39,351 bases of DNA from an uncultured Nitrospiraceae bacterium (GTDB lineage Bacteria; Nitrospirota; UBA9217): contig CAZTXN010000004.1 in assembly GCA_964617655.1 (NCBI GenBank), forward strand, positions 1-39,351, written 5' to 3'. A program made the translations under genes and the position numbers. Numbering within the stretch: position 1 is the stretch's first letter; each line of letters starts with the position of its first letter. Positions 4,898 to 34,391 of this stretch are shown here, one piece after another. Below the pieces are notes generated by a model. That model did not search any database, had not been told where the DNA came from, and saw nothing but the letters and a program-made list of their open reading frames with translations.

Positions 4898-5818
4898 ATT
4901 GCCAGGCCTGATCTCTCCGTCGAGGTCGCGGGCATCAGGCTGAAGAACCCGGTCCTGACCGCGTCCGGCACCTTCGGCTACGGCGAGGAGTACCGGGACA
5001 TCGTGGACCTGAACCGGCTGGGCGGCGTGATCGTGAAGGGCGTGTCGCTCCGGCCGATCGCCGGCAATCCGCCGCCGCGCATCTGGGAGACCCCGTCAGG
5101 CATGCTGAACGCCATCGGCCTCGAGAACCCCGGCGTCGAGGTCTTCCTCCGGGAGAAACTGCCCTACCTCCGCCGGTTCGAGACCGCGGTCATCGTGAAC
5201 GTCTTCGGGTACAGCCGCGAGGAGTATGTCGCGGTGGTGGAGCGGCTGGACGGGGCGCCGGGCGTTGCGGGGCTCGAGGTGAACATCTCCTGCCCGAACG
5301 TGAAGGCCGGCGGCATCGTCTTCGGCACGAACGTCAAGGCGTCATTCGAACTGCTCTCGGCGCTGCGCAGGGCGACGAAGCTGCCGCTGATCGCCAAGCT
5401 CTCCCCGAACGTCACGGACATCACGGAGTTCGCCCGTGCGGCGGCCGACGCGGGCTGCGACGGGCTCTCGCTCATCAACACCCTGCTCGGCATGGCCATC
5501 GACGTCCGCACCCGCAGGCCCCGGCTGGCGAACCGGACCGGAGGCCTGTCGGGCCCGGCCATCCGGCCGGTGGCGGTGCGCATGGTCTGGCAGGCGGCGC
5601 AGGCCGTGCGCCTGCCCATCATCGGGATGGGCGGGATCCTGACGGCCGAGGACGCCCTGGAGTTCATCCTCGCCGGAGCGACGGCCGTCGCCGTGGGGAC
5701 GGCGAACTTCGTGAACCCGCGGGCGACCCTGGACGTGGCCGAGGGGATCGAACGGTTCCTGGCGCAGGAGGGCATCGGGTCGGTGCGGGAGCTGGTGGGC
5801 AAAGCGGGGGCGGAGTGA
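4856..5818 (+). CDS. pyrD: Dihydroorotate dehydrogenase class 1B, catalytic subunit
   Basis: [42 protein letters not shown] motifs. Follows pyrK with an ATGA overlap. Confidence 0.92.
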
Positions 5819-7293
5819 GATTCGCCACCAGCCTCAGGAGCAAGATCATCCTCTCGATCTCCGGGATCCTGGCGGTGATCATCGGCGTCGGCACCTGGAT
5901 CAACATCGGCTACCAGCGCGGCCAGATGGAGTCGGCGCTGCAGGACAACGTCCTCATCATCTCCAATACGATCGAGAAGAGCCTGGCGAACGCCATGCTG
6001 GACGGCAGGAGCAAGGAGGTCCAGCAGATCCTCGAGGCGGTCGGCACCTACCACAACATCCGGGAAGTGCGGATCTTCAGCCCCAACGGCGTGATCCTGA
6101 AGTCGTCGAAGCGGTGGCAGATCGGCAGGAAGGTCGACAGCGCCACCCAGAAATGGTTCCTCGAGGGGAAGTTCAAGAAGCCGATCAAGCGTCGCAGTGA
6201 TGGCGTTTTTTCCGTGCTGTTTCCGATAGAGAACGCGGAGCCATGCTACCGCTGCCACGGCGCCATGGCCCGGCTGAACGGCATCCTTGCCGTGGATGTC
6301 TCCATGGCGGCGACGCAGGAGAAGGTGGGGGAGCTGAGCAAAACCATGATCCTCTGGGCACTGGGCATCACGGCGATCCTGGCGATCTTCCTCTCGCTCT
6401 TCCTGAGCCATTTCGTCACGAACCCGATCCAGGACCTGATGGCCACCATCGAACGCGCGGAGCAGGGGCTCGAGGCGCGGGTTCCGGTCAAGAGCAGCGA
6501 CGACATCGGGAGGCTGGGTGAGGCGTTCAACGCGCTGCTGTCGAAGCTGGAACGCGCGCGCCGCCGGGTGGAGCACTATCACTACGAGCAGATGAAGCGG
6601 GCGGACCGGCTGGCCTCGATCGGCGAGATGGCCGCCGGCATCGCCCATGAGATCAAGAACCCGCTGGCGGGCATCGCGGGCGTGATCCAGGTTCTGAAGA
6701 AAGACCTTTCGCAGGGGGATACAAAACGCGCGGTGCTGGACGAGGTGCTGTCCCAGGTCGAGCGGATGGACAAGGCGGTCCGCAACCTCCTCTCCTTTGC
6801 CCGTCCGCCGGAGCCGAAGATGCAGATGGCGGACGTGAACGAGCTGATCGGGAAGCTGCTGGACTTCCTGGCGCCGCAGTTCGCCAAGTGCGGCATCACG
6901 GCGGAGCGCAGGCTCGCGGCCGGCCTGCCCTGGGTATTCCTGGACCCGGATCTGATGCAGCAGGCGATGTTGAATATCGCATTGAACGCCATCAAGGCCA
7001 TGCCCGAGGGAGGCCGGTTCGCCATCGAGACGCAGGGCCGGCAGGACGGGGAGGGGAGGGGCGGAAGCATCAGCATCGTCCTGTCCGACACCGGGCAGGG
7101 GATCGCGCCGGAGAACCTCGGCCGCATCTTCAATCCTTTTTTCACCACGCGCCAGCAGGGCACGGGGCTGGGCCTCTCGATCACCCAGCGCATCGTGGAG
7201 CAGCATCGGGGCGACATCAGTGTCCAGAGCACGCGGGGCCAAGGCACGGTCTTCACCATCACGCTGCCGGCCTCGGCTTCAGCGGACGACTAG
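5815..7293 (+). CDS. Sensor histidine kinase with a periplasmic CxxCH-containing sensor domain, HAMP, HisKA and HATPase
   Basis: TM1 ([15 protein letters not shown]), ~150 aa loop ending in CYRCH (6244-6258), then TM2. HAMP, H-box [13 protein letters not shown]-box [11 protein letters not shown] start overlaps the pyrD TGA. Confidence 0.9.
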
Positions 7294-7336: not shown

Positions 7337-8704
7337 ATGTCCTACAAGATCCTGGTCATTGACGACGAGAAGCTCATTCGCTGGACCCTGGAGCAGCACC
7401 TGGCGAAGGACGGCTATGAGGTCATCACCGCGGACTCGGCCGAGAAGGGGTTCCAGCTGATCACGGACGAGGCGCCGGACCTCGTCCTCCTCGACAACCG
7501 CCTCCCGGAAATGTCCGGTCTGGAGCTGCTCGAGAAGCTCAATCCGGCGGAGCGGGGCGTCATGGTCATCATGATCACCGCGTACGGCCTGGTCGAGACC
7601 GCGGTCAAGGCGATGAAGCTCGGCGCCTACGACTATATCAGCAAACCCTTCAATCTCGAGGAGATCTCCTTCGTCATCCGGAAGGCGCTCGAGGCGGGCT
7701 CGCTGCGGCGCCAGGTGAAGCAGCTCCGGGGCAGGGTGGACTCCATCGTCGGCGAGACCGAGCAGATGAAACGGGTGGAGGACCTCATCATCAAGATCGC
7801 CCGGAGCGAGGCGACCACGGTCCTGATCCAGGGCGAGAGCGGCACGGGCAAGGAACTGGTGGCCAAGGCGATCCATCACGCGAGCTCCCGGGCGGACAAG
7901 CCGTTCCTGGCGATCAACTGCGCCGCGCTGCCGATCACGCTGCTCGAGTCCGAGCTCATGGGCCACGAGAAGGGCGCGTTCACCGACGCGAAGACCGCCA
8001 AGAAGGGGCTGCTGGAGCTGGCCGACGGGGGCACCATGTTCCTCGACGAGATCGGGGACATGGACATGAACATGCAGGCCAAGCTGCTGCGTGTGCTCGA
8101 GGAGCGCTCCTTCCGGCGGGTCGGCGGCGTCCGGGACATCAAGGTGGACGTGCGGATCATCTCGGCCACGAACCAGGACCTCCAGGCGGCGATGAACGAG
8201 GGGGCTTTCCGGAAGGACCTCTTCTACCGGCTCCAGGTCGTGCCCATCCTGCTGCCGCCGCTCCGGGAGCGGGGAGGGGACATCCTGCTGCTGGCCCGCC
8301 ATTTCATGGAGCAGTTCTCCCGCGAGTGCCACCGGAAGGCCGTGGGGATCTCGCCCGAGGCGGAGCAGGTCATGCTCTCCCATTCCTGGCCGGGCAATGT
8401 GCGGGAGCTCAAGAACGTGATCGAGCGCGCCATGATCTTCGATATCGAGGGCGACCTGCTGCCAGAACACCTGCCGCTGGAGCTCATGGAGGCGCAGCAG
8501 GCGCCGGTCCTGCGGTCCGGCGGCCAGTTCACCCTGGACTGCATCACCATCCCCGAGGAGGGGATCTCGATCGAGGACGTGGAGCACGCGCTGGTGAAGA
8601 AGGCGCTCGAGACCGCAGAGGGCAATCAGACCCGGGCCGCCCAGCTCCTGCGGATGCCGCGGGACGCCTTCCGGCGGCGGATGAAGCGGTACGGTCTCGT
8701 CTGA
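7337..8704 (+). CDS. Sigma54-dependent response regulator (NtrC family: REC + AAA+ + Fis-type HTH)
   Basis: KILVIDDE...LLDNRLP receiver. Walker [15 protein letters not shown] (GAFTGA-type sigma54 contact loop). C-terminal [34 protein letters not shown] upstream. Confidence 0.95.
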
Positions 8705-8795
8705 TCCTCCCTGCAGGCTGAGGGAAGATCGATTCTGAGCATCTGCAGGCCATCACCTGTTCCGCCGGTCCCCGGATCGAGGCTGAAGATATCTA

Positions 8796-8821
8796 CTCAG
8801 CTGATGAGCGAAACTGCTCAG
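8796..8821. promoter_or_regulatory. Candidate enhancer (UAS) dyads for the NtrC-type regulator
   Basis: TGAGC-N6-GCTCA at 8805-8820, overlapping CTCA-N5-TGAG at 8796-8808. Further CTGAGC/CTGCAGG copies at 8711-8749. About 90 bp upstream of the -24 element, with an A/T-rich tract (8845-8900) in between. Confidence 0.35.
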
Positions 8822-8900
8822 GCCGCTAGTTCCGTATGGTCTTTCATGATTTTTTTTATTTATATATCAGTTGGTTGTAGGGAAAAGACCAATAAATAGC

Positions 8901-8916
8901 AGGCACATTTATTGCA
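8901..8916 (+). promoter_or_regulatory. Sigma54 (-24/-12) promoter
   Basis: aGGCACatttaTTGCA compared with consensus TGGCAC-N5-TTGCA. GG and GC are exactly 12 nt apart. It is ~70 nt upstream of ATG 8987, which has SD GAGGAG at 8973-8978. Confidence 0.6.
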
Positions 8917-8986
8917 ACCAACAAACAGTTGAACTTCTTTCCTTCCGTGCCCTTACATATCTTTTGCCGCTGAGGAGCCATCCGTC

Positions 8987-10339
8987 ATGGGGAAACGCCT
9001 AGCAGTCGGTGCCAGTTTTGCCTTCCTGCTCGCCCTCTTCACAGTCCTGGTCCTGTCCGCTCCCCAGGAACTGGGTGCGCAGGCCCCGGCAGCAGGGGAC
9101 AGCTGTGTGACAGCAAAGTGCCATGCATCCTTCGGCAAGGGCGCTGCCGTTCATTCGCCGGTCAAGGAAGGCATGTGCGCCGCCTGCCACATGGCGGTGG
9201 CGGACCCCCAGAAGGGATCGAAGCATCCGGGCAACCTGGTCATCACCCTGATGCAGCAGGGCAGCGAGCTCTGCGCCATGTGCCATGGTCAGAAGGGCGC
9301 CAAGAAGGTGGTGCACGCACCGATCATGGGCGGGGACTGCACGTCCTGCCATGATCCGCACCAGTCGGCGCACAAGGGCATGCTGAAGGCCGCGATGCCC
9401 GATCTCTGCTTCCAGTGTCATCCGGACAGTATGGTCAAACAGCCTGTCCTGCATCCGCCCGTGGCCGGCGGAGACTGCTCGTCCTGCCACGACAACCACG
9501 AGAGCGATTTTTCCGGCCGGCTGGTGCAGGACGGGAACGCGCTCTGCTTCATGTGCCATCCGGACAAGGAGGAGGGACTGAAGACCAAGAAGGTGGCCCA
9601 TATGCCGGTGCAGGCGGCCTGCGTCCAGTGCCACAACCCGCATGGCGCCGCCGCGCCGGCCATGCTCCCGGCAGCGGTGCCGGACCTCTGCGCCGGGTGC
9701 CACCCGAACGAGGTCATGATCGGCCGGAGGGCGGTGACGAAGCACGCACCCATGGGTGACGGCAAGAGCTGCCGGAACTGTCATGACCCGCACTTCTCGG
9801 ACCAGCCCAAGCTCCTGCTGACGGCCCAGGCGGCCATGTGCCTTGCCTGCCACGACCGCGAGCTCGAGACCGGGACCGGCAGGATCGCCAACATGAAGGA
9901 CCTGCTCCAGAAGAACAAGAACGCCCACGGCCCGCTCAAAGGCGGGGACTGCGTCTCCTGCCACGGCCCGCACGGCACCGACTACTGGCGGCTGCTGGTG
10001 CGGTACTATCCGGCCGACTTCTACACGCCCTATTCCGACGGGATGTACGCCCTCTGCTTCTCCTGCCATGACAAGGCGGCGTTCGCCGAGCGCCGGACGA
10101 CGAAGGCCACGGGCTTCCGTGACGGGGACAAGAACCTCCACTTCATCCATGTGAACAAGACGGCCAAGGGAAGGAGCTGCCGCGCCTGCCACGAGGTGCA
10201 CGCGGACAGCGACCGCCCGCACCATGTAAAGCAGCATGTGCAGTTCAGCGGATGGGCGATGCCGATGAACTACGCCGCGGGCAAGAACGGCGGGAGCTGC
10301 CTGCCGGGCTGCCACGGAGAGAAACGGTACAGCAGGTAG
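8987..10339 (+). CDS. Secreted multihaem c-type cytochrome (13 CxxCH + one CX4CH + one CX3CH)
   Basis: Signal peptide MGKRLAVGASFAFLLALFTVLVLSAP. Motifs: CVTAKCH, CAACH, CAMCH, CTSCH, CFQCH, CSSCH, CFMCH, CVQCH, CAGCH, CRNCH, CLACH, CVSCH, CFSCH, CRACH, CLPGCH. Alternating LCxxCH / GxCxxCH(D/N)PH pattern typical of paired-CxxCH cytochromes. Confidence 0.9.
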   Translation: MGKRLAVGASFAFLLALFTVLVLSAPQELGAQAPAAGDSCVTAKCHASFGKGAAVHSPVKEGMCAACHMAVADPQKGSKHPGNLVITLMQQGSELCAMCHGQKGAKKVVHAPIMGGDCTSCHDPHQSAHKGMLKAAMPDLCFQCHPDSMVKQPVLHPPVAGGDCSSCHDNHESDFSGRLVQDGNALCFMCHPDKEEGLKTKKVAHMPVQAACVQCHNPHGAAAPAMLPAAVPDLCAGCHPNEVMIGRRAVTKHAPMGDGKSCRNCHDPHFSDQPKLLLTAQAAMCLACHDRELETGTGRIANMKDLLQKNKNAHGPLKGGDCVSCHGPHGTDYWRLLVRYYPADFYTPYSDGMYALCFSCHDKAAFAERRTTKATGFRDGDKNLHFIHVNKTAKGRSCRACHEVHADSDRPHHVKQHVQFSGWAMPMNYAAGKNGGSCLPGCHGEKRYSR

Positions 10340-10378
10340 TTCCGGTCCCCGCTGAGGGACGTTCCGAAAGGAAGCCGA

Positions 10379-12316
10379 ATGGTGATCCGACGACGCGTGA
10401 TGTTTGCAGCTGCAGGTGCGGTCCTGGCGGGACTGCTTCTTCTCCCGGCACTGCCCGTGCGTTCCGCGGACCAGGCCGCTGTGCCCGCGCTTTCCATCCT
10501 TTACCCCAAGCATGAGTCTGCCGTGGGGCGGCGGGTGAACGTGGTGCTCGATCCCCTCACGGACTGGTCCGTGGCGCCCTTCTTCCAGGTCGTGGTGGGC
10601 GGCGCGGAGCATCCGGTGATCGACGCCTCCAGCGGCAGGCATGCGATGCAGGGCGTTCCCCTGGCGCCGGGCATGAACACCATCACCGTGCGGGCGCTCG
10701 CGCCGGCTCCCAAGGACTCCAAGCGGGAAGAGAACAAGTACCGGGTGCTCGCTTCACGCACGCTGGCGGTCTTCAACCGTGAAGGCAGCTTCACGCCGGT
10801 CACCGGCGCCTTCGAACCGCAGTACTATCACACCCGGGAGAACGAGGCGGACTGCTCCGGCTGCCACCGGCTCGAGGCGGAGCAGCAGGACCTCCGGCCG
10901 AAGGGACCGGACGACGTCCTCTGTATCGCCTGCCACCGCGAGGTTCGCAGGGGCAGGCATATCCACGGCCCGGCGGGGGTGGGGAACTGTCTGGCCTGCC
11001 ATGATCCCGAGCTCTTCCCGGTGAAGTACCAGTTCGATACCGTGGACCCCTGGCAGGTGACCAAGACGACGGCGCCGGTCGAGCCCGCGGTCTTCACCGT
11101 CTCGGCCGATGCGCTCTTCCGCCGCCAGAGCGCGGGGTTCGTGAGCGACAGCGTGCCGCCGCTCCCCCGCACCCGGGGCAGGCAGGACGCGGCGAAGGAG
11201 CAGGAGCTCCGCAGGCAGCGCGACGCGGAGGTCGCTGCGCTCAAGGCGAAGGAGCGGGAGCTCTTCCAGCCCTTCCTGGAGTACGTGAAGCAGAACCCGG
11301 GCGACAAGGTCCGCGTCGAGGTCCATGTGGACACCACCGAGCTCCCGGCCATGAAGGACAGGAAGGCGAAGGGATACCGGAGCCACCAGTCGCTGACCGC
11401 GGCGCGTGCGCGGGCGATCCAGAAACTGCTGGCCGCGTACGGCATAGCGGACAAGGAGCAGGTGTCCGTCGTGGGAATGGGAAGCTCCCTGCCCAAGGCG
11501 CCGAACACGACGGCCGAGAATCGGGCGTTGAACAACCGTATCGAGATCGTCGTGCACCCGGCTGATGTGAAGGTCCGGAACAGCCAGAAACTCCCGGTCC
11601 TGGCGGACCGCCGGCGGGTGATCGTGCACATGACCTATACCCAGGGCATTGCCGAGGTGAAGGACCTCAAGTTCATCGAGCGGCTGCCCCCGGGGTTCCA
11701 GTACGTGAAGCGGACCGGCGTCTACCGGGGGAACGCGCTCGACCCGAAGGCCGCGGGCGATGAACTGGTCTGGACGCTGGGAAGCCCGGGCAGCTACTTC
11801 CAGGAGGCCCTGTCCTTCGTGGTGCGGAAGGACCGGGGAGCGAAGGGCGACGTCGGTCCGGCGGCCCGCCTCCGCTTCCTTGCCGGCACGCAGGAACGCT
11901 CCCGGGAGTTCGATCCGCAGAGGCCGCAGAAGAACGGCCTGACCGTTCCCGAGACCTGCAGCAAGTGCCACGGCACGATGCTGACCGGCGCGTATTCGCA
12001 CGGGCCGGCGGCCGCGGGCCTCTGCACGCTCTGCCATGATCCCCATGCCAGCGACTACCGGGCCTGGACGCGAAAACAGTCGTGGCTGCTCTGCACGACC
12101 TGCCACGCGGAGAAGAAGAGCGAAGTGCATGTCATCCGGGGAGTCGTCCGCAACGTCTCCCATCCTACGCGGAAGCATCGTGATCCGTCGCGGCCGGGCA
12201 AGCGCCTGGCCTGCGTGAGCTGCCATTCCCCGCACAGCGCCGGGACGCAGGACCTGCTGAACTTCGGCGCCCGGAGCAAGTTCGAGCTCTGCGGCGTCTG
12301 CCATCCGAAAAAGTAG
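10379..12316 (+). CDS. Chimeric 8-haem cytochrome with internal OmpA-like peptidoglycan-binding and DUF11-like domains
   Basis: - Signal peptide: MFAAAGAVLAGLLLLPALPVRSA.
- N-terminal haem motifs: CSGCH, CIACH, CLACH (nt ~10853-11002).
- Coiled-coil segment, then OmpA-like block VRVEVHVD...SLTAARARAIQKLL...GMGSSLPKAPNTTAENRALNNRIEIVV (nt ~11261-11557).
- DUF11-like block LPPGFQYVKRTG...LVWTLG.
- C-terminal haem motifs: CSKCH, CTLCH, CTTCH, CVSCH, CGVCH. Confidence 0.88.
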   Translation: MVIRRRVMFAAAGAVLAGLLLLPALPVRSADQAAVPALSILYPKHESAVGRRVNVVLDPLTDWSVAPFFQVVVGGAEHPVIDASSGRHAMQGVPLAPGMNTITVRALAPAPKDSKREENKYRVLASRTLAVFNREGSFTPVTGAFEPQYYHTRENEADCSGCHRLEAEQQDLRPKGPDDVLCIACHREVRRGRHIHGPAGVGNCLACHDPELFPVKYQFDTVDPWQVTKTTAPVEPAVFTVSADALFRRQSAGFVSDSVPPLPRTRGRQDAAKEQELRRQRDAEVAALKAKERELFQPFLEYVKQNPGDKVRVEVHVDTTELPAMKDRKAKGYRSHQSLTAARARAIQKLLAAYGIADKEQVSVVGMGSSLPKAPNTTAENRALNNRIEIVVHPADVKVRNSQKLPVLADRRRVIVHMTYTQGIAEVKDLKFIERLPPGFQYVKRTGVYRGNALDPKAAGDELVWTLGSPGSYFQEALSFVVRKDRGAKGDVGPAARLRFLAGTQERSREFDPQRPQKNGLTVPETCSKCHGTMLTGAYSHGPAAAGLCTLCHDPHASDYRAWTRKQSWLLCTTCHAEKKSEVHVIRGVVRNVSHPTRKHRDPSRPGKRLACVSCHSPHSAGTQDLLNFGARSKFELCGVCHPKK

Positions 12317-12317
12317 G

Positions 12318-13379
12318 GTGCAGCAGCCGATGTTTTATGCTATCATGAGGACACGGAAAGGCCCGGACCTGCCGATGCTACAGCGAACATCCCTCATCCT
12401 TGCAATCTGCAGTTCCCTCGCCCTGCCGGGCTGCGCGCTCATCCTGGGAACAAACGATGCTGCCGGACCGCAGGCCGGCGGACCGCGCGTCAGCTATGTG
12501 GAGACGCTCCGGAACCAGGCCAGCTTCGGCGCAGCCCGGTTCCTCGAGACGGACCCGTCGGCCAGCCCGGCGGCCTCGCTCCAGCGGCCGGTCGCGGTGG
12601 CAGCCGATGATTTTCGCGTGTATGCCGCGGACCGCTCCCCGGCCGGCCGGCTCGTCGTCTTCGACCGCCAGGAACGCACCGTGACCTTCTTGACCGGCCC
12701 GACGCCCACGGCGGTCACCTCGTTCACCTATCTGGAGCCGGCCGCTGTCGCCGTGGACGGGACCGGCGCCATCTATGTCGCTGATGCCCATCAGGGCATG
12801 GTGGTCGTTCTCGACAGGAACGGGGCGCTGCTGCTCACCATCGGCCGCCGCGGCGAGCTCTCGTATCCGGCGGGCCTTGCTCTCGACGCGAAGCGCGGGC
12901 GGCTGTTCGTGGCGGACAAGCATGCCGGACTTGTCCGCGTCCTCACCCTGCGGGGCGAGCCGCTCTTCGAGATCGGCAGGTCAGGTCGGAAGGACGACCT
13001 GCGGACTCCCGTTGCCGTCGCCCTGGACAAGGACGGCTCGATCGCGGTCCTCGACAGCGGGAGAAGGAGCGTCCATCTCTACGGTCCCGAGGGAGCGCAT
13101 CTCAGGACGTTCCGGATCAGCGCCGGCAGGGAGGAGCAGCCGGCGCGGCCTGCAGGCATCGCCGTGGACAGCGCGGGACGCATCTCGGTCACCGATACCG
13201 CGACGAACAGCATACTGGTATTCGACCGGGAGGGTTCCCTGCTCGCGCGTTGGGGCGGGATGGGAAGCCGCCAGGACGAGTTCTGGTCTCCCGCAGGGAT
13301 CTTCATCGGCTCCCGGGACATGGTCTACATCGCCGACCACATGAACGGCCGCATCCAGGTCTATCAGTACGAAAAATGA
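12318..13379 (+). CDS. NHL-repeat six-bladed beta-propeller lipoprotein (paralog 1)
   Basis: Six repeats of the type PxGxAVDxxGxxYVADxxNxRIxVF, for example PAAVAVDGTGAIYVADAHQGMVVVLD and SPAGIFIGSRDMVYIADHMNGRIQVYQY. Lipobox-like LALPGC. Start is ambiguous (GTG 12318, ATG 12330/12345/12375). 1 nt after the upstream stop. Confidence 0.85.
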   Translation: MQQPMFYAIMRTRKGPDLPMLQRTSLILAICSSLALPGCALILGTNDAAGPQAGGPRVSYVETLRNQASFGAARFLETDPSASPAASLQRPVAVAADDFRVYAADRSPAGRLVVFDRQERTVTFLTGPTPTAVTSFTYLEPAAVAVDGTGAIYVADAHQGMVVVLDRNGALLLTIGRRGELSYPAGLALDAKRGRLFVADKHAGLVRVLTLRGEPLFEIGRSGRKDDLRTPVAVALDKDGSIAVLDSGRRSVHLYGPEGAHLRTFRISAGREEQPARPAGIAVDSAGRISVTDTATNSILVFDREGSLLARWGGMGSRQDEFWSPAGIFIGSRDMVYIADHMNGRIQVYQYEK

Positions 13380-14404
13380 TGCTTCTGAAAGGTCCGATCC
13401 CGATGCACGGCGTGCTCGCAGCATGCGCGGCCGCCGTCCTTCTCGTTGCCTGCGCCCAGCCTCCTCCCCGGCCGGAACCCGACAATCTCATCTGGCCCCT
13501 GCCGCCGGCCCAGCCGCGGATCAAGTATGTCCGCTCGATCTACACCGAGGACGATCTCGGCCGGGAGTATTCCTTCCTGGAGAAGCTGTTCGGGAAGGAT
13601 TACTACGACGGCATGGCCCGGCCCTACGGAGTGAGCATCGGTCGCGGCAAGCTCTTCGTCTCCGATGTGATGCTTCGGCGCGTCCTGGTCTTCGACCTCG
13701 AACAAAAGCGCATGTCCAACGTGGGCGGAGAGGGCGGATTCCAGCTGCCGGCGGCCGCGGCGCCGGACGCGGCCGGCAATCTCTACGTGGCCGACACCGG
13801 CGGCTCCAAGGTGGTGGTCTATGATCCCCGGGGCGCCTACCGGACCGCGTTCCTGCTTGATGAGGGAAGGCCGGTCGGTCTGGCGGTGAACAACGCACTG
13901 TCCCGGCTCTATGTGGTGGACCGCGCAGGACACCGCGTGGTGGTCTTCGGGCTGGACGGCTCGCTGCTCTTCCAGTTCGGCGGCCGGGGCGCCGCGGAGG
14001 GAAAGTTCAACATACCTCTCGACATCGCCATCGAGCCTGACGGGACGGTCCATCTGCTGGACAGCGGCAACTTTCGCGTGCAGTCCTTCACGCCTGACGG
14101 CGCCTTTCTGTCCGCCTTCGGCGCCGTGGGCGACGCGCCGGGCATGTTCGCGAATCCCAAGGGCATCGCGGTCGATTCCGACGGCCACCTCTACGTGACC
14201 GATGCGGCCTTCTCGAACTTCCAGATCTTCGACCGCAGGGGGAACATCCTGCTGCATGTGGGCGAGGCGGGCGTCCTGCCGGGATCTCTTCGGATGCCCG
14301 CGGGGATCGCGATCGATGAGCAGGACCGCATCTATGTCGCCGACCAGATGAACGCACGGATCCAGGTGTTCCAGTACCTGAAGGGGGCCGGGGGGACGCG
14401 GTGA
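13376..14404 (+). CDS. NHL-repeat six-bladed beta-propeller lipoprotein (paralog 2)
   Basis: Lipobox LLVAC after MMLLKGPIPMHGVLAACAAAV. Six NHL repeats, for example NPKGIAVDSDGHLYVTDAAFSNFQIFD and MPAGIAIDEQDRIYVADQMNARIQVFQY. ATGA overlap with paralog 1. The ORF-track start at 13250 was rejected. Confidence 0.85.
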   Translation: MMLLKGPIPMHGVLAACAAAVLLVACAQPPPRPEPDNLIWPLPPAQPRIKYVRSIYTEDDLGREYSFLEKLFGKDYYDGMARPYGVSIGRGKLFVSDVMLRRVLVFDLEQKRMSNVGGEGGFQLPAAAAPDAAGNLYVADTGGSKVVVYDPRGAYRTAFLLDEGRPVGLAVNNALSRLYVVDRAGHRVVVFGLDGSLLFQFGGRGAAEGKFNIPLDIAIEPDGTVHLLDSGNFRVQSFTPDGAFLSAFGAVGDAPGMFANPKGIAVDSDGHLYVTDAAFSNFQIFDRRGNILLHVGEAGVLPGSLRMPAGIAIDEQDRIYVADQMNARIQVFQYLKGAGGTR

Positions 14405-16215
14405 TGGAAAAGAAAGCGGCCGTACGCGGCATCATCCAGTCCCTCGGCCTGGTCTTCGGGGACATCGGCACCAGCCCCATCTATACGATCACGGTCATCT
14501 TCCTGATCACTGCCAAGACCGAGGAGAACGTCATCGGCGTGCTCTCGCTCATCGCCTGGACGGTCATCCTGCTCGTGACGGTCAAGTATGCATGGCTTGC
14601 CATGGGACTGGGAAAACGGGGTGAAGGCGGGATCATCGTGCTGACCGAGATCCTCACGCCCTACCTGACCTCGGCCCGCCAGGCCGCCTTCGTGACGTTC
14701 ATCTCCTACGTGGGCATCTCGCTCTTCGTGGGCGACGGGGTCATCACGCCCGCCATCAGCATCCTCTCGGCCGTGGAGGGGCTGCTGCTGATCCCCGGAC
14801 TCGAGGATACGCCGCAGACCGTCCTCATCCTGGTCGCGGGCGTGATCGCCATCGTGCTCTTTTCGGTCCAGCGGAAGGGCACCGAGAAGGTGGCGGGCTC
14901 CTTCGGGCCGATCATGCTGGTCTGGTTCCTGGTGCTGGCCGCTTCGGGGATTGCGTCCATCATCGAGATGCCGTCGGTGATGAAGGCTCTGAGCCCGGTG
15001 TACGGGATCCGGTTCCTCGACCAGAACATCCTGGCCGGATTCTTCATCCTCGCGGAGGTGATCCTCTGCGCAACGGGCGGCGAGGCGCTCTACGCGGACA
15101 TGGGCCACCTGGGAGGCGAACCCATCCGGCGCGCCTGGAACTTCGTCTTCCCGGCCCTCATCCTGAGCTACTTCGGCCAGGGGGCCTTCCTTGCCCAGCA
15201 TCCGGAGACGAAGAACGTGCTGTTCGAGATGATCTACTCCCAGGCGCGGATCCTCTACATCCCGTTCCTGCTCCTGAGCATCAGCGCGACCATTATCGCA
15301 TCCCAGGCGATGATCAGCGGCATGTTCTCCCTCGTCTTCCAGGGCATCATGACCAGGATCATGCCGATCCTGAAGGTCGACTTCACGTCCCACGAGCGTC
15401 AGTCGCAGATCTATATCGGCACGGTGAACTGGGCGCTGCTCATTGCGGTGCTCTTCATCATCGTGGAGTTCGGCGCCTCCAGCAAACTTGCGGTGGCCTA
15501 CGGCCTCGCGGTCACCGGCACCATGACCGTCACCGGCATCATGATGATCTGGATCTTCCTGAAACGGGGGCAGCTTGTCCGCGCCTGGGCCTCGGTGCTC
15601 GTGACCCTGATCGCTTTCGTCTACCTGCTCTCGAACACCACCAAGATCCCGCACGGCGGGTACTGGTCCCTGGTCATCGCCGCGATCCCCTTCGGGGTGA
15701 TCCTCCTGTATACGATCGGCCAGCGCAGGCTCTACCGGGCCATGCAGCCGCTCCCCCAGGACGTCTTCCTGCTGAGCTACAACCAGATCTATGCCGCGAT
15801 GCCCAAGATCCGGGGAACGGCGCTCTTCTTCGCCAAGGACCCCCGGGAGATGCCGCCCTATGTCGTCCACACGATGTTCAAGAACCACATCATCTACGAG
15901 GACAATATCATCGTCTCGATCGTCCGGCGCCAGGACCCCTTCGGCGTCACCGGGTTCTTCAAGGACGACCTGGCGCCCGGCCTCCGTTCCTTCGAGATCC
16001 AGGTGGGCTACATGGAGGTCATCGACGTGGACGATATCCTGCGCGACAACGGGATGAACGAGAAGGCCATCTTCTACGGCGTCGAGGATATCCTGTCCGG
16101 CAACATCTTCTGGAAGGCCTTCTCGGCCATGAAGAAGCTGACCCCGAACATCGTGCAGTTCTACAAGCTTCCCTACAACAAGCTGCACGGCGTCGTGACG
16201 CGCGTGGAGATGTAG
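14404..16215 (+). CDS. kup: Kup/HAK/KT-family K+ transporter (copy 1)
   Basis: GLVFGDIGTSPIYT signature, ~12 TM core, GGEALYADMGHLG, cytoplasmic C-terminal domain. ATG 14404 overlaps the NHL-2 TGA (TGATG). GTG 14401 is an alternative start. Confidence 0.93.
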   Translation: MEKKAAVRGIIQSLGLVFGDIGTSPIYTITVIFLITAKTEENVIGVLSLIAWTVILLVTVKYAWLAMGLGKRGEGGIIVLTEILTPYLTSARQAAFVTFISYVGISLFVGDGVITPAISILSAVEGLLLIPGLEDTPQTVLILVAGVIAIVLFSVQRKGTEKVAGSFGPIMLVWFLVLAASGIASIIEMPSVMKALSPVYGIRFLDQNILAGFFILAEVILCATGGEALYADMGHLGGEPIRRAWNFVFPALILSYFGQGAFLAQHPETKNVLFEMIYSQARILYIPFLLLSISATIIASQAMISGMFSLVFQGIMTRIMPILKVDFTSHERQSQIYIGTVNWALLIAVLFIIVEFGASSKLAVAYGLAVTGTMTVTGIMMIWIFLKRGQLVRAWASVLVTLIAFVYLLSNTTKIPHGGYWSLVIAAIPFGVILLYTIGQRRLYRAMQPLPQDVFLLSYNQIYAAMPKIRGTALFFAKDPREMPPYVVHTMFKNHIIYEDNIIVSIVRRQDPFGVTGFFKDDLAPGLRSFEIQVGYMEVIDVDDILRDNGMNEKAIFYGVEDILSGNIFWKAFSAMKKLTPNIVQFYKLPYNKLHGVVTRVEM

Positions 16216-16244: not shown

Positions 16245-18074
16245 ATGCCGGGAGACATGAACACGAACTGGACAGCGCCCTTCCGGGGCACCGTGAAGTC
16301 CCTCGGCCTGGTCTTCGGCGACATCGGCACAAGCCCCATCTATACCCTTACCGTCGTCTTCCTCCTGACCCGGCCCACGGAGCAGCATGTCATCGGCGTG
16401 CTCTCCCTCGTCTTCTGGACGCTCGTCCTGCTCGTCACCGTCCAGTATGCCTGGCTGGCCACCAGCCTGGGAAAGCGCGGAGAGGGCGGGACCATCGTGC
16501 TCCGGGAGATCCTCGCGCCGATGCTGCGATCCGGCCGCCAGGCCGCGTTCGTGACCGCCCTGACCTATATCGGGATATCGCTCATGATCGGCGACGGCGT
16601 CATCACGCCGGCCATCAGCATCCTTTCCGCCGTGGAGGGCATGCTGCTGATACCGGGCCTTGCGGGGACCGGCCGATGGGTCCTGATCCTGATCGCAGGC
16701 GCCATCGCCCTGACGCTCTTCCTGGTGCAGCGGCAGGGGACGGAGAAGGTCGCGGCGGCATTCGGCCCGGTCATGGCCCTCTGGTTCATCGTGCTCGCAC
16801 TCTCCGGCGCGGCATCCATCGTCCGGACGCCGTCGGTGCTCACGGCGGTGAACCCCCAGCACGCTGCGGCATTCCTGGCGGAGAACGGCGTGGCTGGGTT
16901 CTTCATCCTGTCCGAGGTGGTGCTCTGCGCCACCGGAGGCGAGGCGCTCTATGCCGATATGGGACATCTGGGGCGCAGGCCGATCGTGCTGGCATGGCAC
17001 TTCGTGTTCACGGCGCTGGTGGTCAATTATATGGGCCAGGGAGCTTACCTGGTGCGGAACCCGGAGGCAAAGAACGTCCTGTTCGAGATGATCTATCAGC
17101 AGGCCAGCGCGCTCTACATCCCGTTCCTGGTCCTCTCGGTCCTGGCCACGATCATCGCTTCCCAGGCCATGATCAGCGGCATGTTCTCCATCGTCTACCA
17201 GGGGATCGCGACCCGCATCCTTCCCATGCTGCGCATCGCCTATACCTCGGTGGAGCGGCGGTCGCAGATCTATATCGGTGCGGTGAACTGGTTTCTGCTG
17301 GGGTCGGTGCTCTTCATCATGGTGGAGTTCCAGGAGTCGAGCAGGCTGGCCGCCGCCTACGGACTTGCGGTGACCGGGACCATGACCCTGACCGGCATCA
17401 TGATGACCTGTATCTTCCGCCTGCAGCGGAAGTACGGCCGCATGGCGGCGGCGATGCTGGTTACCGCGGTTTCCGCCGTCTATCTGCTCTCGAACACCAC
17501 GAAGATCCCGCATGGCGGGTACTGGTCGCTCATCATCGCGGCGCTGCCGCTCTGCGTCATCCTGATCTATACGCAAGGCCAGCGAAAGCTCTATGAGGAG
17601 CTTCGTCCGATGCCGTTCGAAGTGTTCCTGCCGAGCTACCAGCAGCTCTACCAGGGGATGTGCCGCATTCCGGGCACGGCGCTCTTCTTCGCCAAGGACC
17701 CGATGACGGTGCCGCCCTATCTGTCGCACACGATGATCAAGAACAACATTCTCTACGAGACCAATATCATCGTATCCATCCTCCGGCGGGAGGATCCCTT
17801 CGGCGTGGCGGCGTACTTCAAGGACGATCTGGCGCCCGGCCTGCGGGTGTTCGAGGTCCAGCTGGGCTACATGGAGGTCCCGGACCTGGAGGCGCTCCTC
17901 CGGGAGGCGGGCATATCGGAAAAAGCGATATTCTACGGCGTCGAGGACATCTATGCCTCGAACTGCCTCTGGCAGACTTTTTCCGTCATCAAGAAGCTCA
18001 CCCCGTCGCTCGTTCAGTTCTATCAGCTTCCCTCCAACAGGCTGCATGGCGTGGTCACCAAGGTCGAGATGTAG
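16245..18074 (+). CDS. kup: Kup/HAK/KT-family K+ transporter (copy 2, tandem paralog)
   Basis: Same signatures (GLVFGDIGTSPIYT, GGEALYADMGHLG, NTTKIPHGGYWSL). Collinear with copy 1 along its full length. 29 nt after copy 1. Confidence 0.93.
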   Translation: MPGDMNTNWTAPFRGTVKSLGLVFGDIGTSPIYTLTVVFLLTRPTEQHVIGVLSLVFWTLVLLVTVQYAWLATSLGKRGEGGTIVLREILAPMLRSGRQAAFVTALTYIGISLMIGDGVITPAISILSAVEGMLLIPGLAGTGRWVLILIAGAIALTLFLVQRQGTEKVAAAFGPVMALWFIVLALSGAASIVRTPSVLTAVNPQHAAAFLAENGVAGFFILSEVVLCATGGEALYADMGHLGRRPIVLAWHFVFTALVVNYMGQGAYLVRNPEAKNVLFEMIYQQASALYIPFLVLSVLATIIASQAMISGMFSIVYQGIATRILPMLRIAYTSVERRSQIYIGAVNWFLLGSVLFIMVEFQESSRLAAAYGLAVTGTMTLTGIMMTCIFRLQRKYGRMAAAMLVTAVSAVYLLSNTTKIPHGGYWSLIIAALPLCVILIYTQGQRKLYEELRPMPFEVFLPSYQQLYQGMCRIPGTALFFAKDPMTVPPYLSHTMIKNNILYETNIIVSILRREDPFGVAAYFKDDLAPGLRVFEVQLGYMEVPDLEALLREAGISEKAIFYGVEDIYASNCLWQTFSVIKKLTPSLVQFYQLPSNRLHGVVTKVEM

Positions 18075-18603: not shown

Positions 18604-20233
18604 ATGGGAGGAGCGCGCACTGACGACGGCCAGGACTGGCTGGTCGTCTACAAGAAGCGCATCATCATCGGCATCGTCGCCATCCTGACGCTGACCATCG
18701 TCCTGACCCTGTTCTTCATCGTCTGCACCATGCGCCAGCGGCTGATGGAGGAGAGCAGGCACCGGGCCGAGGAGCTTGGCACGGTGCTGCACTCCAGCCT
18801 CTCCCATCTCATGGAGGCGCGGGACCCCGACCGGATGCAGCGGACGTTGGTGGCCGTGGGCCGGGGAGATACGACGATCCTTCGAGCGGCCATCATCGAC
18901 AACCGCGGCCGGATCGCCTACTCTTCGAACGAGCGGGAGGTCGGGTCGGTGGTCGACCGGGCGGCGGACCCCTCCTGCACCGGCTGCCACCGCGGCACCG
19001 AGGTCACGACCCACGAGACCACGACCACCCTGACGCTGCATGGCGAGCAGGCACTGCGGTACGTGCATATCATCCCGAACGAGCCGTCCTGTCATGCCTG
19101 CCATCCGCCCTCCGTGCGGATCAACGGCAAGCTGATCATCGACCGTTCGCTCGAGCCCACCCGGACGCTGGTGGGCGCCATCGTCGTCATCATCTCGGGG
19201 CTGGGCGTCGTCTGCCTCGCCATCCTCATCCCGTTCCTCTGGAGGATCCTCTCCCGGGGCGTCAATACCTACATCGACGAGATCCGCCTGCGGTCGGCCG
19301 AACTCGGGATGCTCTATAACGCCGTGGACCGGCTGAGCGCCACGATCGAGTTCGAGGCCCTGAAGCGCGTCATCATCGAGATCATCAGCGAGACGCTGGA
19401 TGCGGACGAAGTGGACATGGTGCTGCCGAGCGAGTACAAGGACCTCGGCGCAACGGTCTGGAGCAGGATGGACGGAGCTATCGCGCGGAAGAAGGTGGAG
19501 CAGGGAGCGATGCTGCACACGGTCATCCGGCGGTGGCTCGACGGCGGGCTGACGGAGCTCGAGCTGGACCGGTCGGGACGGGAGATCGTGGCGCCGGTCT
19601 CGAAGGCCGGGAACCGCGTGGCCCTCATCGTGGTCCGGTCGGGCGAGACGGGCTTCACGGCGGCCCAGCTGCCGCTCCTGCGCGCCATGGCGAACCATAT
19701 CGCCGTGGCCTTCGAGAACGCCACGCTCTACCAGATGGCCATCACGGACGAGCTGACCGGGCTCTACTCGAACCGTCATTTCCGCCATACGATCATCCGC
19801 AAGTACGCGGCGTTCCAGGAGTTCGGCGAGAAGATGACGCTGCTCATGGCGGACATCGACAACTTCAAGCGGATCAACGATACCTACGGCCATCCGGCAG
19901 GGGACGCCATCCTGAAGGACGTGGGCAGGTGCATCCTGAACTCGATCCGCGAGGACGACCTGGCCTTCCGGTACGGCGGCGAGGAGTTCGCGGTCATCCT
20001 GCCCGCCACGGACATCCCCGCCGGCGAGGCGGTGGCGGAGCGCATGCGTGCCCTGATCGCCCATTTCCCCTTCAAGGCGGACCAGCACGTGCTGACCGTG
20101 ACCGTGAGCATCGGGGTCTCGGCCTGGCCGGCGAGCGCCGAGAACGTGAAGGACCTGGTCATGGAAGCCGACAAGGCGCTCTATGAGGCGAAGCACACGG
20201 GCAAGGACCGGGTGAAGGTGAGGAAGAAAGAGT

Positions 20234-20235
<2 letters not shown>
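18604..20235 (+). CDS. Diguanylate cyclase: periplasmic 2x CxxCH sensor domain - TM - GAF - GGDEF
   Basis: TM1 IIIGIVAILTLTIVLTLFFIV. CTGCH (18976-18990) and CHACH (19090-19104) precede TM2. GAF region follows. Active GGEEF with an RxxD I-site (REDD-x5-GGEEF). SD GGGGAGG. Confidence 0.9.
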
Positions 20236-31953: not shown

Positions 31954-33045
31954 GTGAAGCTTGAAAGCCGCGCGGTACGAACTGCAGTGGTCGCGGGCGT
32001 GCTGCTCCTCATCACCATCCTCCATTCCCTGCTCGGGACAGCCGGTTCGGGCTGGCTGCACAGCCTGCTCGGCCATCTCTACATAGCGCCGATCATCATG
32101 GCCGCCTACTGGTTCGGCTTCTCCGGCGGCGTGCTCGCGTCGATCTGCTCCATGATACTGTTCCTCTGGCACTTCTTCTTCCACTGGCCGGAGCAGTTCG
32201 TGGACATCTACAACTTCGTCGAGCTCTTTCTCTTCCTGGTCATCGGCGTCACCACCGGCGTGCTGAGCCAGATGGAGCGGAACCAGCGGCTGCGGTACGA
32301 GCAGGCGCTGGTGCGGCTGGACGAATCGCACCGCAAGCTGCGGGAGCAGACCGAGGTCCTGTTCCAGACCGAGGAGCATCTCCGGCGGGCGGACCGGCTC
32401 TCGGCCCTGGGCGAGCTCTCCGCCGGCATGGCCCACGAGATCCGGAACCCCCTGGGCTCCATCCGGGGGGCGGCGGAGATCCTGAAGGACGACTACGGAC
32501 CGGGGACCCCCAAGGCGGAGTTCGTCCAGATCCTGCTGAAGGAGACGGAGCGGCTGAACACCATCGTGCAGGAGTTCCTGAACTTCGCCCGGCCCCGGCA
32601 GCCGGAGTTCCATGAAGCGGACGTGAACGAGGTGCTCGACTCGGTGCTGACCCTGACGGCGCAGCCCGCGCGCACGGCCGGGATAACCGTGGAGCGGCGG
32701 CTCGATCCGCTGCTGGGAAAACGGAACGTGGACGCCGGCCTGCTGAAGCAGGCGTTCCTGAACCTCGTCCTGAACGCCATCCAGGCAATGCCGCAGGGCG
32801 GGACGCTGGTCGTGGCGACCGCCCTGCGCGACGGCGCCCTGGAGGTCCGGGTGGCGGACAGCGGCGCCGGCATCGCGCCGGAGCACCGGCGGAAGCTCTT
32901 CAGCCCCTTCTTCACCACCAAACGGGACGGCACCGGCCTGGGGCTGGCAATCACCTACCGCATCATCGAGAACCACCGGGGGACCATCGACGTGGAGAGC
33001 GAACCGGGAAAGGGCACGACGTTCACCGTGCGGATACCCACATGA
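31954..33045 (+). CDS. Sensor histidine kinase with a membrane-embedded (DUF4118-like) sensor, no periplasmic domain
   Basis: Four short TM helices with several His/Trp (LHSLLGHLY, LFLWHFFFHWPEQF). H-box SAGMAHEIRNPL and G-box GTGLGLAI. GTG 31954 follows GAAGAAGGAAGG. Confidence 0.87.
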   Translation: MKLESRAVRTAVVAGVLLLITILHSLLGTAGSGWLHSLLGHLYIAPIIMAAYWFGFSGGVLASICSMILFLWHFFFHWPEQFVDIYNFVELFLFLVIGVTTGVLSQMERNQRLRYEQALVRLDESHRKLREQTEVLFQTEEHLRRADRLSALGELSAGMAHEIRNPLGSIRGAAEILKDDYGPGTPKAEFVQILLKETERLNTIVQEFLNFARPRQPEFHEADVNEVLDSVLTLTAQPARTAGITVERRLDPLLGKRNVDAGLLKQAFLNLVLNAIQAMPQGGTLVVATALRDGALEVRVADSGAGIAPEHRRKLFSPFFTTKRDGTGLGLAITYRIIENHRGTIDVESEPGKGTTFTVRIPT

Positions 33046-34391
33046 AGAGACCTGCCGTCCTGCTGATCGACGACGATGCGAGCCTGCGGCGCGTGATCGA
33101 GTACAGCCTGCTCGAGAGCGGCTACACGGTCCACGCCGCGGCGAGCGGCGAGGAGGGTCTGGCCCTGCTCGCCAAGGAGCGCTGCGACGCCGTGGTCACG
33201 GACATCACGATGCCCGGGATGAGCGGCATGGAGGTGCTCGCCCGCGTGCGCGCGGCCGATCCCGGCATGCCGGTGATCATCATCACGGCCTACGGGACCA
33301 TCGAGAGCGCCGTGGAGGCCATGCGGCAGGGCGCCCATGACTATATCACCAAGCCCTTCAACCGAGACGAGCTGCGCATCACGCTGGAGCGGGCACTCCG
33401 GCTCCGCCGGCTCGAGCGGGAGAACGTCGAGCTGCGCGCCGCGGTGATCGAGCGCCATCAGTTCGCCGGCATCATCGGCAACAGCGCCGCGATGCATGAG
33501 CTGCTCGACCTTGCCGGCCGCGTGGCCGCCAGCGACGCCACGGTGCTGATCACCGGCGAGAGCGGCACGGGCAAGGAGGTGCTCGCCAAGGGGATCCATT
33601 ACACCGGCGGCCGGTCCGGCGGCCCCTTCGTCGCGGTGAACTGCGCGGCGATCCCGGAGAACCTGATCGAGAGCGAGCTCTTCGGCCACGTGAAGGGCTC
33701 CTTCACCGGAGCGGTGCGGGACCGGGAGGGGAAGTTCGAGCAGGCCGACGGCGGCACGATCTTCCTCGACGAGATCGCCGAGCTCCGGACCGACCTGCAG
33801 GCCAAGATCCTCCGGGCGCTCCAGGAGCGGACCGTGGACCGCGTCGGCGGCAGGCCGGTGAGCGTCGATGTCCGGGTGATCGCGGCGACGAACCGCGATC
33901 TGGAGCGCGCGGTGAAGGAGGGATCGTTCCGCGAGGACCTCTTCTACCGTCTCAGCGTCGTGACGCTCCAGATGCCGCCGCTGCGCGAGCGGCGGGAGGA
34001 CATCCCCCTGCTGGCGGAGCATTTTCTGCGGAAGTTCGGGCGGGGCGCCGCGGCATCGATCGAACCCGATACGCTGGCCGCCCTGACCGCCTACGGGTGG
34101 CCTGGGAACGTCCGGGAGCTCGAGAACACCATGGAGCGGGCGCTGGTCCTGAAGCGGGGCGAGAGCATCACGACCACGGACCTTCCCGAGCGGATAACCC
34201 GCGGCAGGGAAGGGGCCTCGGACATCATCCTGAACCTGCCGGAGGAGGGCATCTCCCTCGAGGAGCTCGAGCGCACGCTGATCCGGATGGCGCTCGAGAA
34301 GCAGAAGGGAAACCAGACCCGCGCCGCGGAATACCTCGGCATCACCCGGCCGACGCTCATCTACCGCATGGAGAAGTACGGATTGAAGTGA
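33042..34391 (+). CDS. Sigma54-dependent response regulator (NtrC family)
   Basis: REC (VLLIDDD...VVTDITMPGMSG), [14 protein letters not shown] loop, C-terminal HTH NQTRAAEYLGITRPTLIYRMEKYGL. ATGA overlap with the kinase. Confidence 0.95.
   Translation: MKRPAVLLIDDDASLRRVIEYSLLESGYTVHAAASGEEGLALLAKERCDAVVTDITMPGMSGMEVLARVRAADPGMPVIIITAYGTIESAVEAMRQGAHDYITKPFNRDELRITLERALRLRRLERENVELRAAVIERHQFAGIIGNSAAMHELLDLAGRVAASDATVLITGESGTGKEVLAKGIHYTGGRSGGPFVAVNCAAIPENLIESELFGHVKGSFTGAVRDREGKFEQADGGTIFLDEIAELRTDLQAKILRALQERTVDRVGGRPVSVDVRVIAATNRDLERAVKEGSFREDLFYRLSVVTLQMPPLRERREDIPLLAEHFLRKFGRGAAASIEPDTLAALTAYGWPGNVRELENTMERALVLKRGESITTTDLPERITRGREGASDIILNLPEEGISLEELERTLIRMALEKQKGNQTRAAEYLGITRPTLIYRMEKYGLK

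Follow-up and report, generated by a model that had tools for sequence, protein, structure and literature searches.

How electrons cross the 20-30 nm periplasm and the cell wall in metal-respiring and electrode-using bacteria is debated, and small diffusing cytochromes are set against fixed wires. Clusters of multihaem cytochrome and NHL beta-propeller genes have been proposed to support extracellular electron transfer in D. ferrophilus (DFE_0448-0451/0461-0465; PMC5815863, PMC8322314), in Gallionella (PMC10734462) and in G. metallireducens (Gmet_0556-0558), and a cytochrome/NHL cluster, Uet, has been proposed in Tenderiales (bioRxiv 10.1101/2022.05.06.490989). On which side of the outer membrane each subunit of the clusters in D. 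ferrophilus, Tenderiales, Gallionella and the Geobacter relatives resides is uncertain; for the D. ferrophilus cytochromes the location is explicitly uncertain, and deleting them did not impair Fe(III) reduction (PMC9769857). Here we describe an operon of similar gene content in a 39,351-nucleotide stretch of DNA from an uncultured Nitrospiraceae bacterium (contig CAZTXN010000004.1; hereafter the window), in which the gene at 10379-12316 encodes an octahaem c-type cytochrome that carries, between its third and fourth haem motifs, an OmpA-like domain followed by a DUF11-like domain. Comparison with relatives indicates that this two-domain cassette is an insertion, made in one Nitrospirota clade, into a short surface loop between haem 3 and haem 4 of an otherwise widespread octahaem cytochrome. 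A peptidoglycan anchor inside a multihaem cytochrome is a reasonable reading of this arrangement.

The window resembles the DFE, Uet and Gmet clusters in gene content, namely in large doubled-CXXCH cytochromes beside NHL propeller lipoproteins, and it shares with a Desulfuromonadaceae locus the presence of sigma-54 regulators near such a cluster. Unlike the DFE, Uet and Gmet clusters it lacks tri- or tetrahaem genes, a peptidyl-prolyl isomerase (PPIase) and a porin (UetC in Uet); in the Pfam results for the 5.8-20 kb region of the window, neither a PPIase nor a porin-like gene appears. At a Sulfurimonas locus (L030), a SurA/PpiC-like gene, read by eye, follows the NHL gene. The D. ferrophilus island encodes an OmpA family protein as a separate gene, DFE_0455 (PMC8322314), whereas a cytochrome with an internal OmpA-like domain, present in the window, is not reported in the DFE, Uet or Gallionella papers. 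Full-text searching of the literature likewise turned up no description of an OmpA-like domain set inside a multihaem cytochrome, which agrees with an earlier, sequence-only reading of the window that had judged the combination unusual among known cytochromes. The novelty is the new combination of a known cytochrome family with a known anchor domain. Porin-cytochrome conduits (MtrCAB, PCC3, OetABI) also consist of multihaem proteins thought to carry electrons through the envelope; they are defined, however, by a beta-barrel porin that sheathes the cytochrome, and the window operon has no porin gene. We had considered the Oet cluster as a parallel that joins a PPIase, cytochromes and a propeller; this was wrong, as OetABI is a porin-cytochrome conduit without an NHL component.

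The architecture of the 645-residue protein is certain. A single open reading frame (ORF) with an ATG start and a TAG stop at 12314-12316 encodes it, and the eight CxxCH motifs that the sequence-only reading had recognised, in a 3+5 layout, all lie where it placed them (CSGCH 159, CIACH 182, CLACH 204, CSKCH 527, CTLCH 549, CTTCH 572, CVSCH 612 and CGVCH 638) and are invariant in the 38-sequence family alignment used for all residue counts and for structure prediction. About 40 full-length homologues of 585-686 residues were recovered by protein search from independent NCBI, ENA, JGI and Logan assemblies, nearly all of them with precomputed PF00691 and cytochrome domains. They are 45-76% identical to the window protein, and chance occurrence of the motifs is excluded because the motifs are invariant across sequences at that distance. 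The earlier reading had also raised a fusion of two genes by assembly error; the homologues, all of independent metagenomic origin, share the architecture and the synteny, and an artefactual fusion is ruled out. The OmpA-DUF11 feature goes unnoticed in public annotation, where the labels are 'hypothetical protein' and 'cytochrome c3 family protein'.

Motifs, distal histidines and profile matches agree that the protein is a multihaem c-type cytochrome of the Paired_CXXCH_1 / c7-like type. PF14522 (Cytochrome_C7) scores 33.7 bits against a cut-off of 24.8 over residues 150-209 of the first haem block, whose mean pairwise identity is 62%; in the second block Pfam scores Paired_CXXCH_1 (PF09699) at 88.8 bits and also gives a MtrC/MtrF II-IV-like stretch (residues 525-643). 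The alignment contains a further eight or nine conserved histidines, of which H88, H151, H541, H556, H584, H595 and H619 are invariant and H196 is present in 37 of 38 sequences, so that enough non-motif histidines are available for bis-histidine ligation of all eight haems. The AlphaFold2 (AF2) model is poor in the haem regions, as expected without haems. For the N-terminal domain, which has a mean pairwise identity of 54% and holds the invariant candidate distal ligand H88, AF2 predicts strands only, with a predicted local distance difference test score (pLDDT) of ~80; the Ig-like segment proposed from the sequence is thus upheld as a predicted all-beta domain, while all Pfam Ig-like matches are sub-threshold. 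The extreme N-terminus is a basic-hydrophobic-VRSA stretch, read by eye as a putative export signal; it is the sole hydrophobic segment of the protein and is variable within the family (25% identity).

The OmpA-like domain is genuine, as profile, fold and pocket residues all attest. PF00691 (OmpA) scores 39.6 bits against a gathering score of 27.2 over residues 286-385, as the OmpA/MotB-like block of the sequence-only reading had led us to expect, and this stretch is also matched by the NCBIfam models MotB, MotD, TssL, YiaD and Pal, none of which reaches its own full-length cut-off. By sequence, H. pylori MotB (C-terminal domain) gives the best match in the PDB (E = 1.2e-8). The AF2 model has a pLDDT of ~90 across residues 222-520, and Foldseek against the PDB returned 3s0y, MotB-C, as its top match (E = 2.4e-7, probability 1.0), with further fold matches at probability 1.0 to OprF-C, A. 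baumannii OmpA-C (AbOmpA), TssL/TagL of the type VI secretion system (T6SS), YiaD and YfiB; TM-scores reach ~0.7 on the target. Alignment shows that the domain begins earlier than the Pfam boundary, with the strand FTVSADALF matching FTLKSDVLF of OmpA; further on, VEVH316-V-D318 aligns with GHTD/GHAD, and LTAAR343A with LSERRA, so that D318 and R343 line up with the GHTD Asp and the LSxxRA Arg of OmpA, Pal and MotB. (Of the reference sequences, the H. pylori MotB fragment was taken from the PDB match, and those for OmpA, Pal and E. coli MotB were entered by hand.) In E. coli OmpA, D241 and R256 hold diaminopimelate. Their equivalents in the alignment, D318 and R343, are both present in the window protein, and they recur in 31 and 35 of the 38 family members respectively (R343 is Gln in the other three). 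R387 of the NxxR motif is invariant, as are H316 and A344. In its length the D...R loop, KGYRSHQSLTAARA, follows the MotB pattern; its counterpart in E. coli MotB reads KGYSNWELSADRA.

A charged segment that the sequence-only reading had set apart as a coiled coil is indeed predicted to be helical (H271-295). It lies, however, between beta1 and alpha1 inside the OmpA-like domain, and we reject it as a separate module. It is the only poorly conserved part of the middle segment (30% identity, length 2-35 residues) and is reduced to a few residues in nine homologues (P0029, P0031-P0038; here and below, P-numbers denote individual proteins and L-numbers the loci compared). This extra variable helix and the position of the domain within a cytochrome distinguish it from MotB/PomB, Pal, OmpA-C, OprF-C and TagL, with which it shares the fold, the Asp/Arg pocket and the NxxR motif; also missing, relative to MotB/PomB and the other OmpA-like anchors, are a transmembrane stator helix, a MotA partner, a lipid anchor and a beta-barrel. 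We considered whether the protein is a MotB/PomB stator and rejected this: the domain is of MotB type, and there is neither an N-terminal stator helix with a proton-relay Asp nor, by Pfam, a MotA-family gene near the octahaem gene.

The segment that follows was recognised from the sequence as DUF11-like, and its homology to DUF11 is real but remote. AF2 predicts strands here (pLDDT ~90). The Pfam model (PF01345) gave no match on the full protein at E <= 1, nor on residues 394-520 alone at E <= 10, and the link was recovered transitively. A phmmer search with residues 222-520 against 1.84 billion representative proteins returned 1238 matches at E <= 1e-3; among them is P0048, of 4419 residues, to which the beta-sandwich part by itself aligns at 26 places (E = 2.7e-29). 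P0048 is in turn scored by Pfam as thirty DUF11 repeats (1148 bits), and a hidden Markov model (HMM) of the family's beta-sandwich matches all 30 of them. Through these matches the segment is shown to be a remote DUF11 homologue that the Pfam model misses.

The two domains also occur together elsewhere. P0052, P0055, P0057, P0083 and P0106 have the arrangement of the window protein: an OmpA domain and then, 13-21 residues on, a DUF11-like domain. P0052 is a Bacteroidota 'OmpA family protein' of 2198 residues, and proteins of its type differ from the window protein in having no haem motifs and many DUF11, SdrD_B and CarboxypepD_reg repeats. Among the best 147 representatives the tandem is found in 34 non-cytochrome proteins, most of them 560-2700 residues long, and the ten cytochromes in that set all belong to the present family. 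The occurrence of the tandem in non-cytochrome proteins therefore identifies it as a pre-existing two-domain cassette, and a mobile one; the giant proteins that bear it also carry SdrD_B and CarboxypepD_reg domains. Cluster look-ups for the taxonomy of possible donors assigned only one, a Bacteroidota protein.

The same cytochrome exists widely without the cassette. A scan of one genome per species gave 80 loci. We ran per-block HMMs against all six-frame ORFs, over 81 loci in total, and the OmpA and DUF11-like blocks were confined to the Nitrospirota loci L001-L009. All other octahaems in the scanned loci are 320-390 residues long (~340), with the same 3+5 CxxCH layout; their hosts are Sulfurimonas and other Campylobacterota, Aquificota, Geobacter/Desulfuromonadales, Desulfobulbales, Desulfocapsa, Binatia, Acidobacteriota and other Nitrospirota. 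These proteins share with the window protein the Ig-like N-terminus, in those whose sequences were read or aligned, and the same invariant distal histidines. An 11-14-haem cytochrome adjoins the octahaem gene in nearly every locus scanned, and NHL genes lie alongside wherever the flanks were inspected. The insert-less proteins differ in the insert columns, which hold 0-18 residues in orthologues of at least seven other phylum-level groups and in two members of the window protein's own clade, against ~290 residues in the window protein. A profile of the insert-less proteins found 427 relatives at E <= 1e-10; the 120 of these that were listed carry generic names or none, and among those 120, most of which lack a source name, no DFE, Uet or Gmet protein appears and no D. 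ferrophilus or Tenderia protein is named. In Aquificota and some Campylobacterota the insert-less gene is tandemly duplicated, one copy often having 6-7 CxxCH motifs (L016, L041, L047, L054, L057, L060, L062, L065, L067).

These orthologues bear on the geometry of the protein. The sequence-only reading had placed two separate haem modules on either side of the anchor, and this is not supported: since orthologues join the same blocks through a junction of 0-18 residues, the 3-haem and 5-haem blocks would pack as a single octahaem unit. On that comparison the cassette must be a loop insertion that projects from the unit, not a spacer between haem modules.

In a neighbour-joining tree of the cytochrome core, the insert-bearing proteins form one Nitrospirota clade, and the insert-less L010 and L011 nest within it beside P0032, at 85-89% core identity. 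L010 (9149-10219) and L011 (2-694) come from Nitrospirota metagenome-assembled genomes (MAGs) of different studies; the cassette is cleanly absent from both, 6-18 residues being left in the insert columns, and in L010 the loop at the insert site reads YPVKYQFAAAGSRPGDPKKPTVPGLTIRDTC. They are a natural deletion control for the cassette. The simplest history suggested by the tree would be one gain followed by one later clean loss. Divergent insert-bearing members (P0047, P0049, P0050, P0061) are 31-38% identical in the insert, and the two of them with a named source, the P0047 and P0050 clusters, come from Nitrospirae/Nitrospiraceae MAGs and are annotated as hypothetical proteins.

That the cassette could be lost in L010 and L011 without destroying the gene would suit a neutral hitch-hiking domain, or else an artefactual joining of two genes. 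Mean pairwise identity in the insert is nevertheless 46-53%, in a family 45-76% identical to the window protein; because this is close to the 54-62% of the haem and Ig blocks, the insert is under selection. Variability is limited to the internal helix, and the deepest branches keep the cassette. The artefact version is effectively refuted by the same in-frame architecture in some 40 independent assemblies from different studies and sources, and we regard either form of this explanation as very improbable.

We propose instead, with a probability of about 0.6, that in the periplasm the cassette acts as a non-covalent tether between peptidoglycan and the octahaem with its partners. The gene module in question, a widespread one, consists of a large 'doubled CXXCH' cytochrome, an octahaem with an Ig-like N-terminus and one or two NHL lipoproteins. 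After Sec export and haem attachment, the octahaem, as a presumably periplasmic c-type cytochrome, would bind the peptide stem of peptidoglycan through D318 and R343 of its OmpA-like domain. Binding would fix its position at the level of the cell wall, along with that of the partners attached by way of it, the 13-15-haem cytochrome and the lipid-anchored NHL propellers, in place of free diffusion, if the subunits form a complex through which electrons flow. For the DUF11-like domain, a role as spacer or docking surface is probable.

Several observations weigh against this proposal. The pocket Asp is replaced by G, A, E or a gap in 7 of the 38 members, and it is A or G in the divergent P0047 and P0049. 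The cassette was lost whole in two natural members, L010 and L011, and is thus dispensable in some backgrounds. Its geometry relative to the haems is read from orthologues only. The DUF11-like domain was inserted along with the OmpA-like domain and has no known role at peptidoglycan, and it is in cell-surface proteins that DUF11 repeats typically occur. The window encodes neither an inner-membrane quinol oxidoreductase nor an outer-membrane porin. Finally, the localisation of the related D. ferrophilus cytochromes is disputed (PMC9769857).

The first of these observations fit a cassette that has given up peptidoglycan binding and now serves as a spacer or in docking between proteins, where the NHL propellers or the 13-haem partner could be what it docks. 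The lost pocket Asp, the Gln in place of the pocket Arg in 3 of 38 members, the dispensability of the cassette in L010 and L011 and the inclusion of a DUF11-like domain with no assigned function would all be explained, and OmpA-like domains do serve in complexes such as the T6SS (TssL/TagL) and Dot/Icm, both among the fold matches. Most members, the window protein included, nevertheless keep both pocket residues and the invariant NxxR387 motif, in the conservation pattern of a canonical OmpA-like domain; moreover, the OmpA-like domains of TagL, MotB and PomB are themselves peptidoglycan binders. We consider a pure docking role unlikely, if the most serious of the alternatives.

Less probable still is a cytochrome exported to the surface, whose cassette would serve extracellular electron transfer as an adhesin that binds an extracellular polymer or a mineral surface. 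A resemblance to surface adhesins is seen in DUF11 repeats and in the giant cassette proteins with their SdrD_B and CarboxypepD_reg domains, and an outer-membrane or extracellular location has been proposed for related cytochrome/NHL clusters (PMC5815863; PMC8322314). The protein, however, has no lipobox, and neither a secretion-system gene nor a porin gene was found near the octahaem gene. The fold matches are all periplasmic peptidoglycan-binding domains, and in every characterised case known to us OmpA-like domains act on the periplasmic side.

The natural fusion of a conserved subunit to a peptidoglycan-binding domain offers a clue of the Rosetta-stone kind, which suggests that this subunit works in the periplasm, at the wall. 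Its main value is as a testable handle on the envelope position of a widespread cytochrome module, and cassette-plus and cassette-minus variants matched at 85-89% core identity occur naturally, making a simple test possible. Should the domain prove not to bind peptidoglycan, what remains is an unusual domain insertion specific to one lineage. It is tempting to go further and picture the sacculus as the scaffold of a static periplasmic relay, in which the cassette sets an octahaem wire at a defined height in the periplasm, accompanied by its 13-15-haem partner and by NHL propellers anchored in the outer membrane; this is a tentative idea that we think possible and would not favour. Were it true, electrons would cross the wall layer through a fixed haem chain, not by diffusing carriers, and the conserved octahaem that lacks the insert, in the widespread cytochrome/NHL clusters, would by extension belong to the periplasm and not to the surface.

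Table 1. Features of the octahaem cytochrome gene and its operon in the window.
Feature	Coordinates	Strand	Basis
Whole gene, octahaem c-type cytochrome with OmpA-like + DUF11-like insert	10379..12316	+	ORF, Pfam, ~40 full-length homologues
Putative Sec-type signal peptide, residues 1-30 (...LPVRSA/DQ), without lipobox Cys	10379..10468	+	Read from sequence
N-terminal all-beta (Ig-like) domain, residues 35-145	10481..10813	+	AF2 strands, alignment
Haems 1-3, residues 146-221 (CSGCH, CIACH, CLACH), c7-like trihaem block	10814..11041	+	PF14522
MotB-type OmpA-like domain, residues 222-395, with D318, R343, H316, A344, R387	11042..11563	+	PF00691, PDB match, Foldseek, alignment
Variable charged helix, residues 258-290, within OmpA-like domain	11150..11248	+	Overlaps predicted helix H271-295
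Beta-sandwich, remote DUF11 homologue, residues 396-511	11564..11911	+	phmmer, family HMM, AF2
Haems 4-8, residues 512-645 (CSKCH, CTLCH, CTTCH, CVSCH, CGVCH)	11912..12313	+	Paired_CXXCH_1
Upstream partner, 450-residue 'doubled CXXCH' multihaem cytochrome	8987..10339	+	Pfam, NCBIfam, motif count
NHL beta-propeller lipoprotein 1, likely start ATG 12375, lipobox LPGC	12318..13379	+	PF01436, 88 bits
NHL beta-propeller lipoprotein 2, lipobox LVAC	13376..14404	+	PF01436, 105 bits
Histidine kinase, periplasmic sensor with CxxCH	5815-7293	+	Pfam; synteny kept in L001
Sigma-54-dependent response regulator	7337-8704	+	Pfam; kinase and regulator directly upstream of operon
Sigma-54 type -24/-12 element, aGGCAC-N5-TTGCA	8901..8916	+	71 bp before first cytochrome ATG

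The features of the gene and its operon are collected in Table 1. The upstream partner contains 13 CxxCH motifs, one CX4CH and one CX3CH, and the two NHL genes are joined by an ATGA start/stop overlap. The most distant homologue, at 45% identity and on a 282-kb contig, keeps the gene order of the window: carB, greA, pyrD, histidine kinase, sigma-54 regulator, multihaem cytochrome, OmpA-cytochrome, NHL, NHL. The sigma-54 element is the sole match with at most one mismatch in the 39-kb window, where 0.66 would be expected anywhere. In the form rGGCAy-N5-TTGCA it recurs before the operon at L001 8522, L003 7232, L004 7224, L006 6521, L007 7293 and L008 7577, and is kept in seven of the eight insert-bearing loci examined, the window counted. 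Within 8600-14800 we found no sigma-70-like promoter or credible terminator above chance. The four genes appear to form one sigma-54-dependent transcription unit, whose activation would come from the neighbouring sensor kinase and NtrC-type regulator. A strikingly AT-rich tract (8845-8900) precedes the element in a genome of ~66% GC.

Homologous periplasmic sensor domains (BLASTP E = 2e-8; Pfam Mcp40H-20_sensor) occur in the histidine kinase that precedes the operon and in a GGDEF diguanylate cyclase encoded after it (18604-20235, +). Where the two align, each sensor contains a CxxCH (PCYRCH / SCHACH); another, CTGCH, is found in the GGDEF protein. In appearance these are periplasmic haem-c sensors of the type known from Geobacter methyl-accepting chemotaxis proteins (MCP), which suggests that the operon and cyclic di-GMP (c-di-GMP) signalling may both be under redox or ligand control.

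At several loci the surroundings of the cluster differ in ways worth recording. In L001 (ERZ25039462 contig_28309), otherwise syntenic with the window, the kinase is in two pieces, the regulator is truncated, the upstream cytochrome is spread over two ORFs and a phage-integrase domain is joined to an NHL gene; these splits and fusions probably result from frameshift errors in assembly. MotB-like stator gene pairs, absent from the window, lie 5-6 kb downstream of the cluster in L003 (15121-16472, -), L010 (14423-15756, -) and L008 (16027-17076, -), with a transmembrane helix and a GHTD...SNWELS.ARA OmpA-like domain. We considered the OmpA matches near these three clusters as Rosetta-stone partners of the fusion and rejected them as ordinary stator pairs. 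Beside insert-less clusters, no separate OmpA gene was found in the Desulforhopalus (L082) and Desulfuromonadaceae (L083) islands. Both of these islands hold TPR/CcmH-like and thioredoxin-like maturation genes and, between the NHL and cytochrome genes, a gene for a protein of 639-887 residues with no Pfam match (L082 2097-4016, L083 1603-4266); it might be an uncharacterised outer-membrane component, and the Nitrospirota operon lacks it.

Downstream of the operon, the window encodes two tandem Kup-type K+ transporter paralogues of 604 and 609 residues (14401-16215 and 16245-18074, +), the first of which starts at 14401 and overlaps the end of the second NHL gene at 14404. Several ORFs of 230-380 residues without a Pfam match lie at 20-30 kb on either strand. 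Further on are a second kinase (DUF4118) with its own sigma-54 regulator (31954-34391, +), an ApbE flavin-transferase gene (35718-36704, +) and a third kinase, with a CHASE8 sensor (37712-39253, +).

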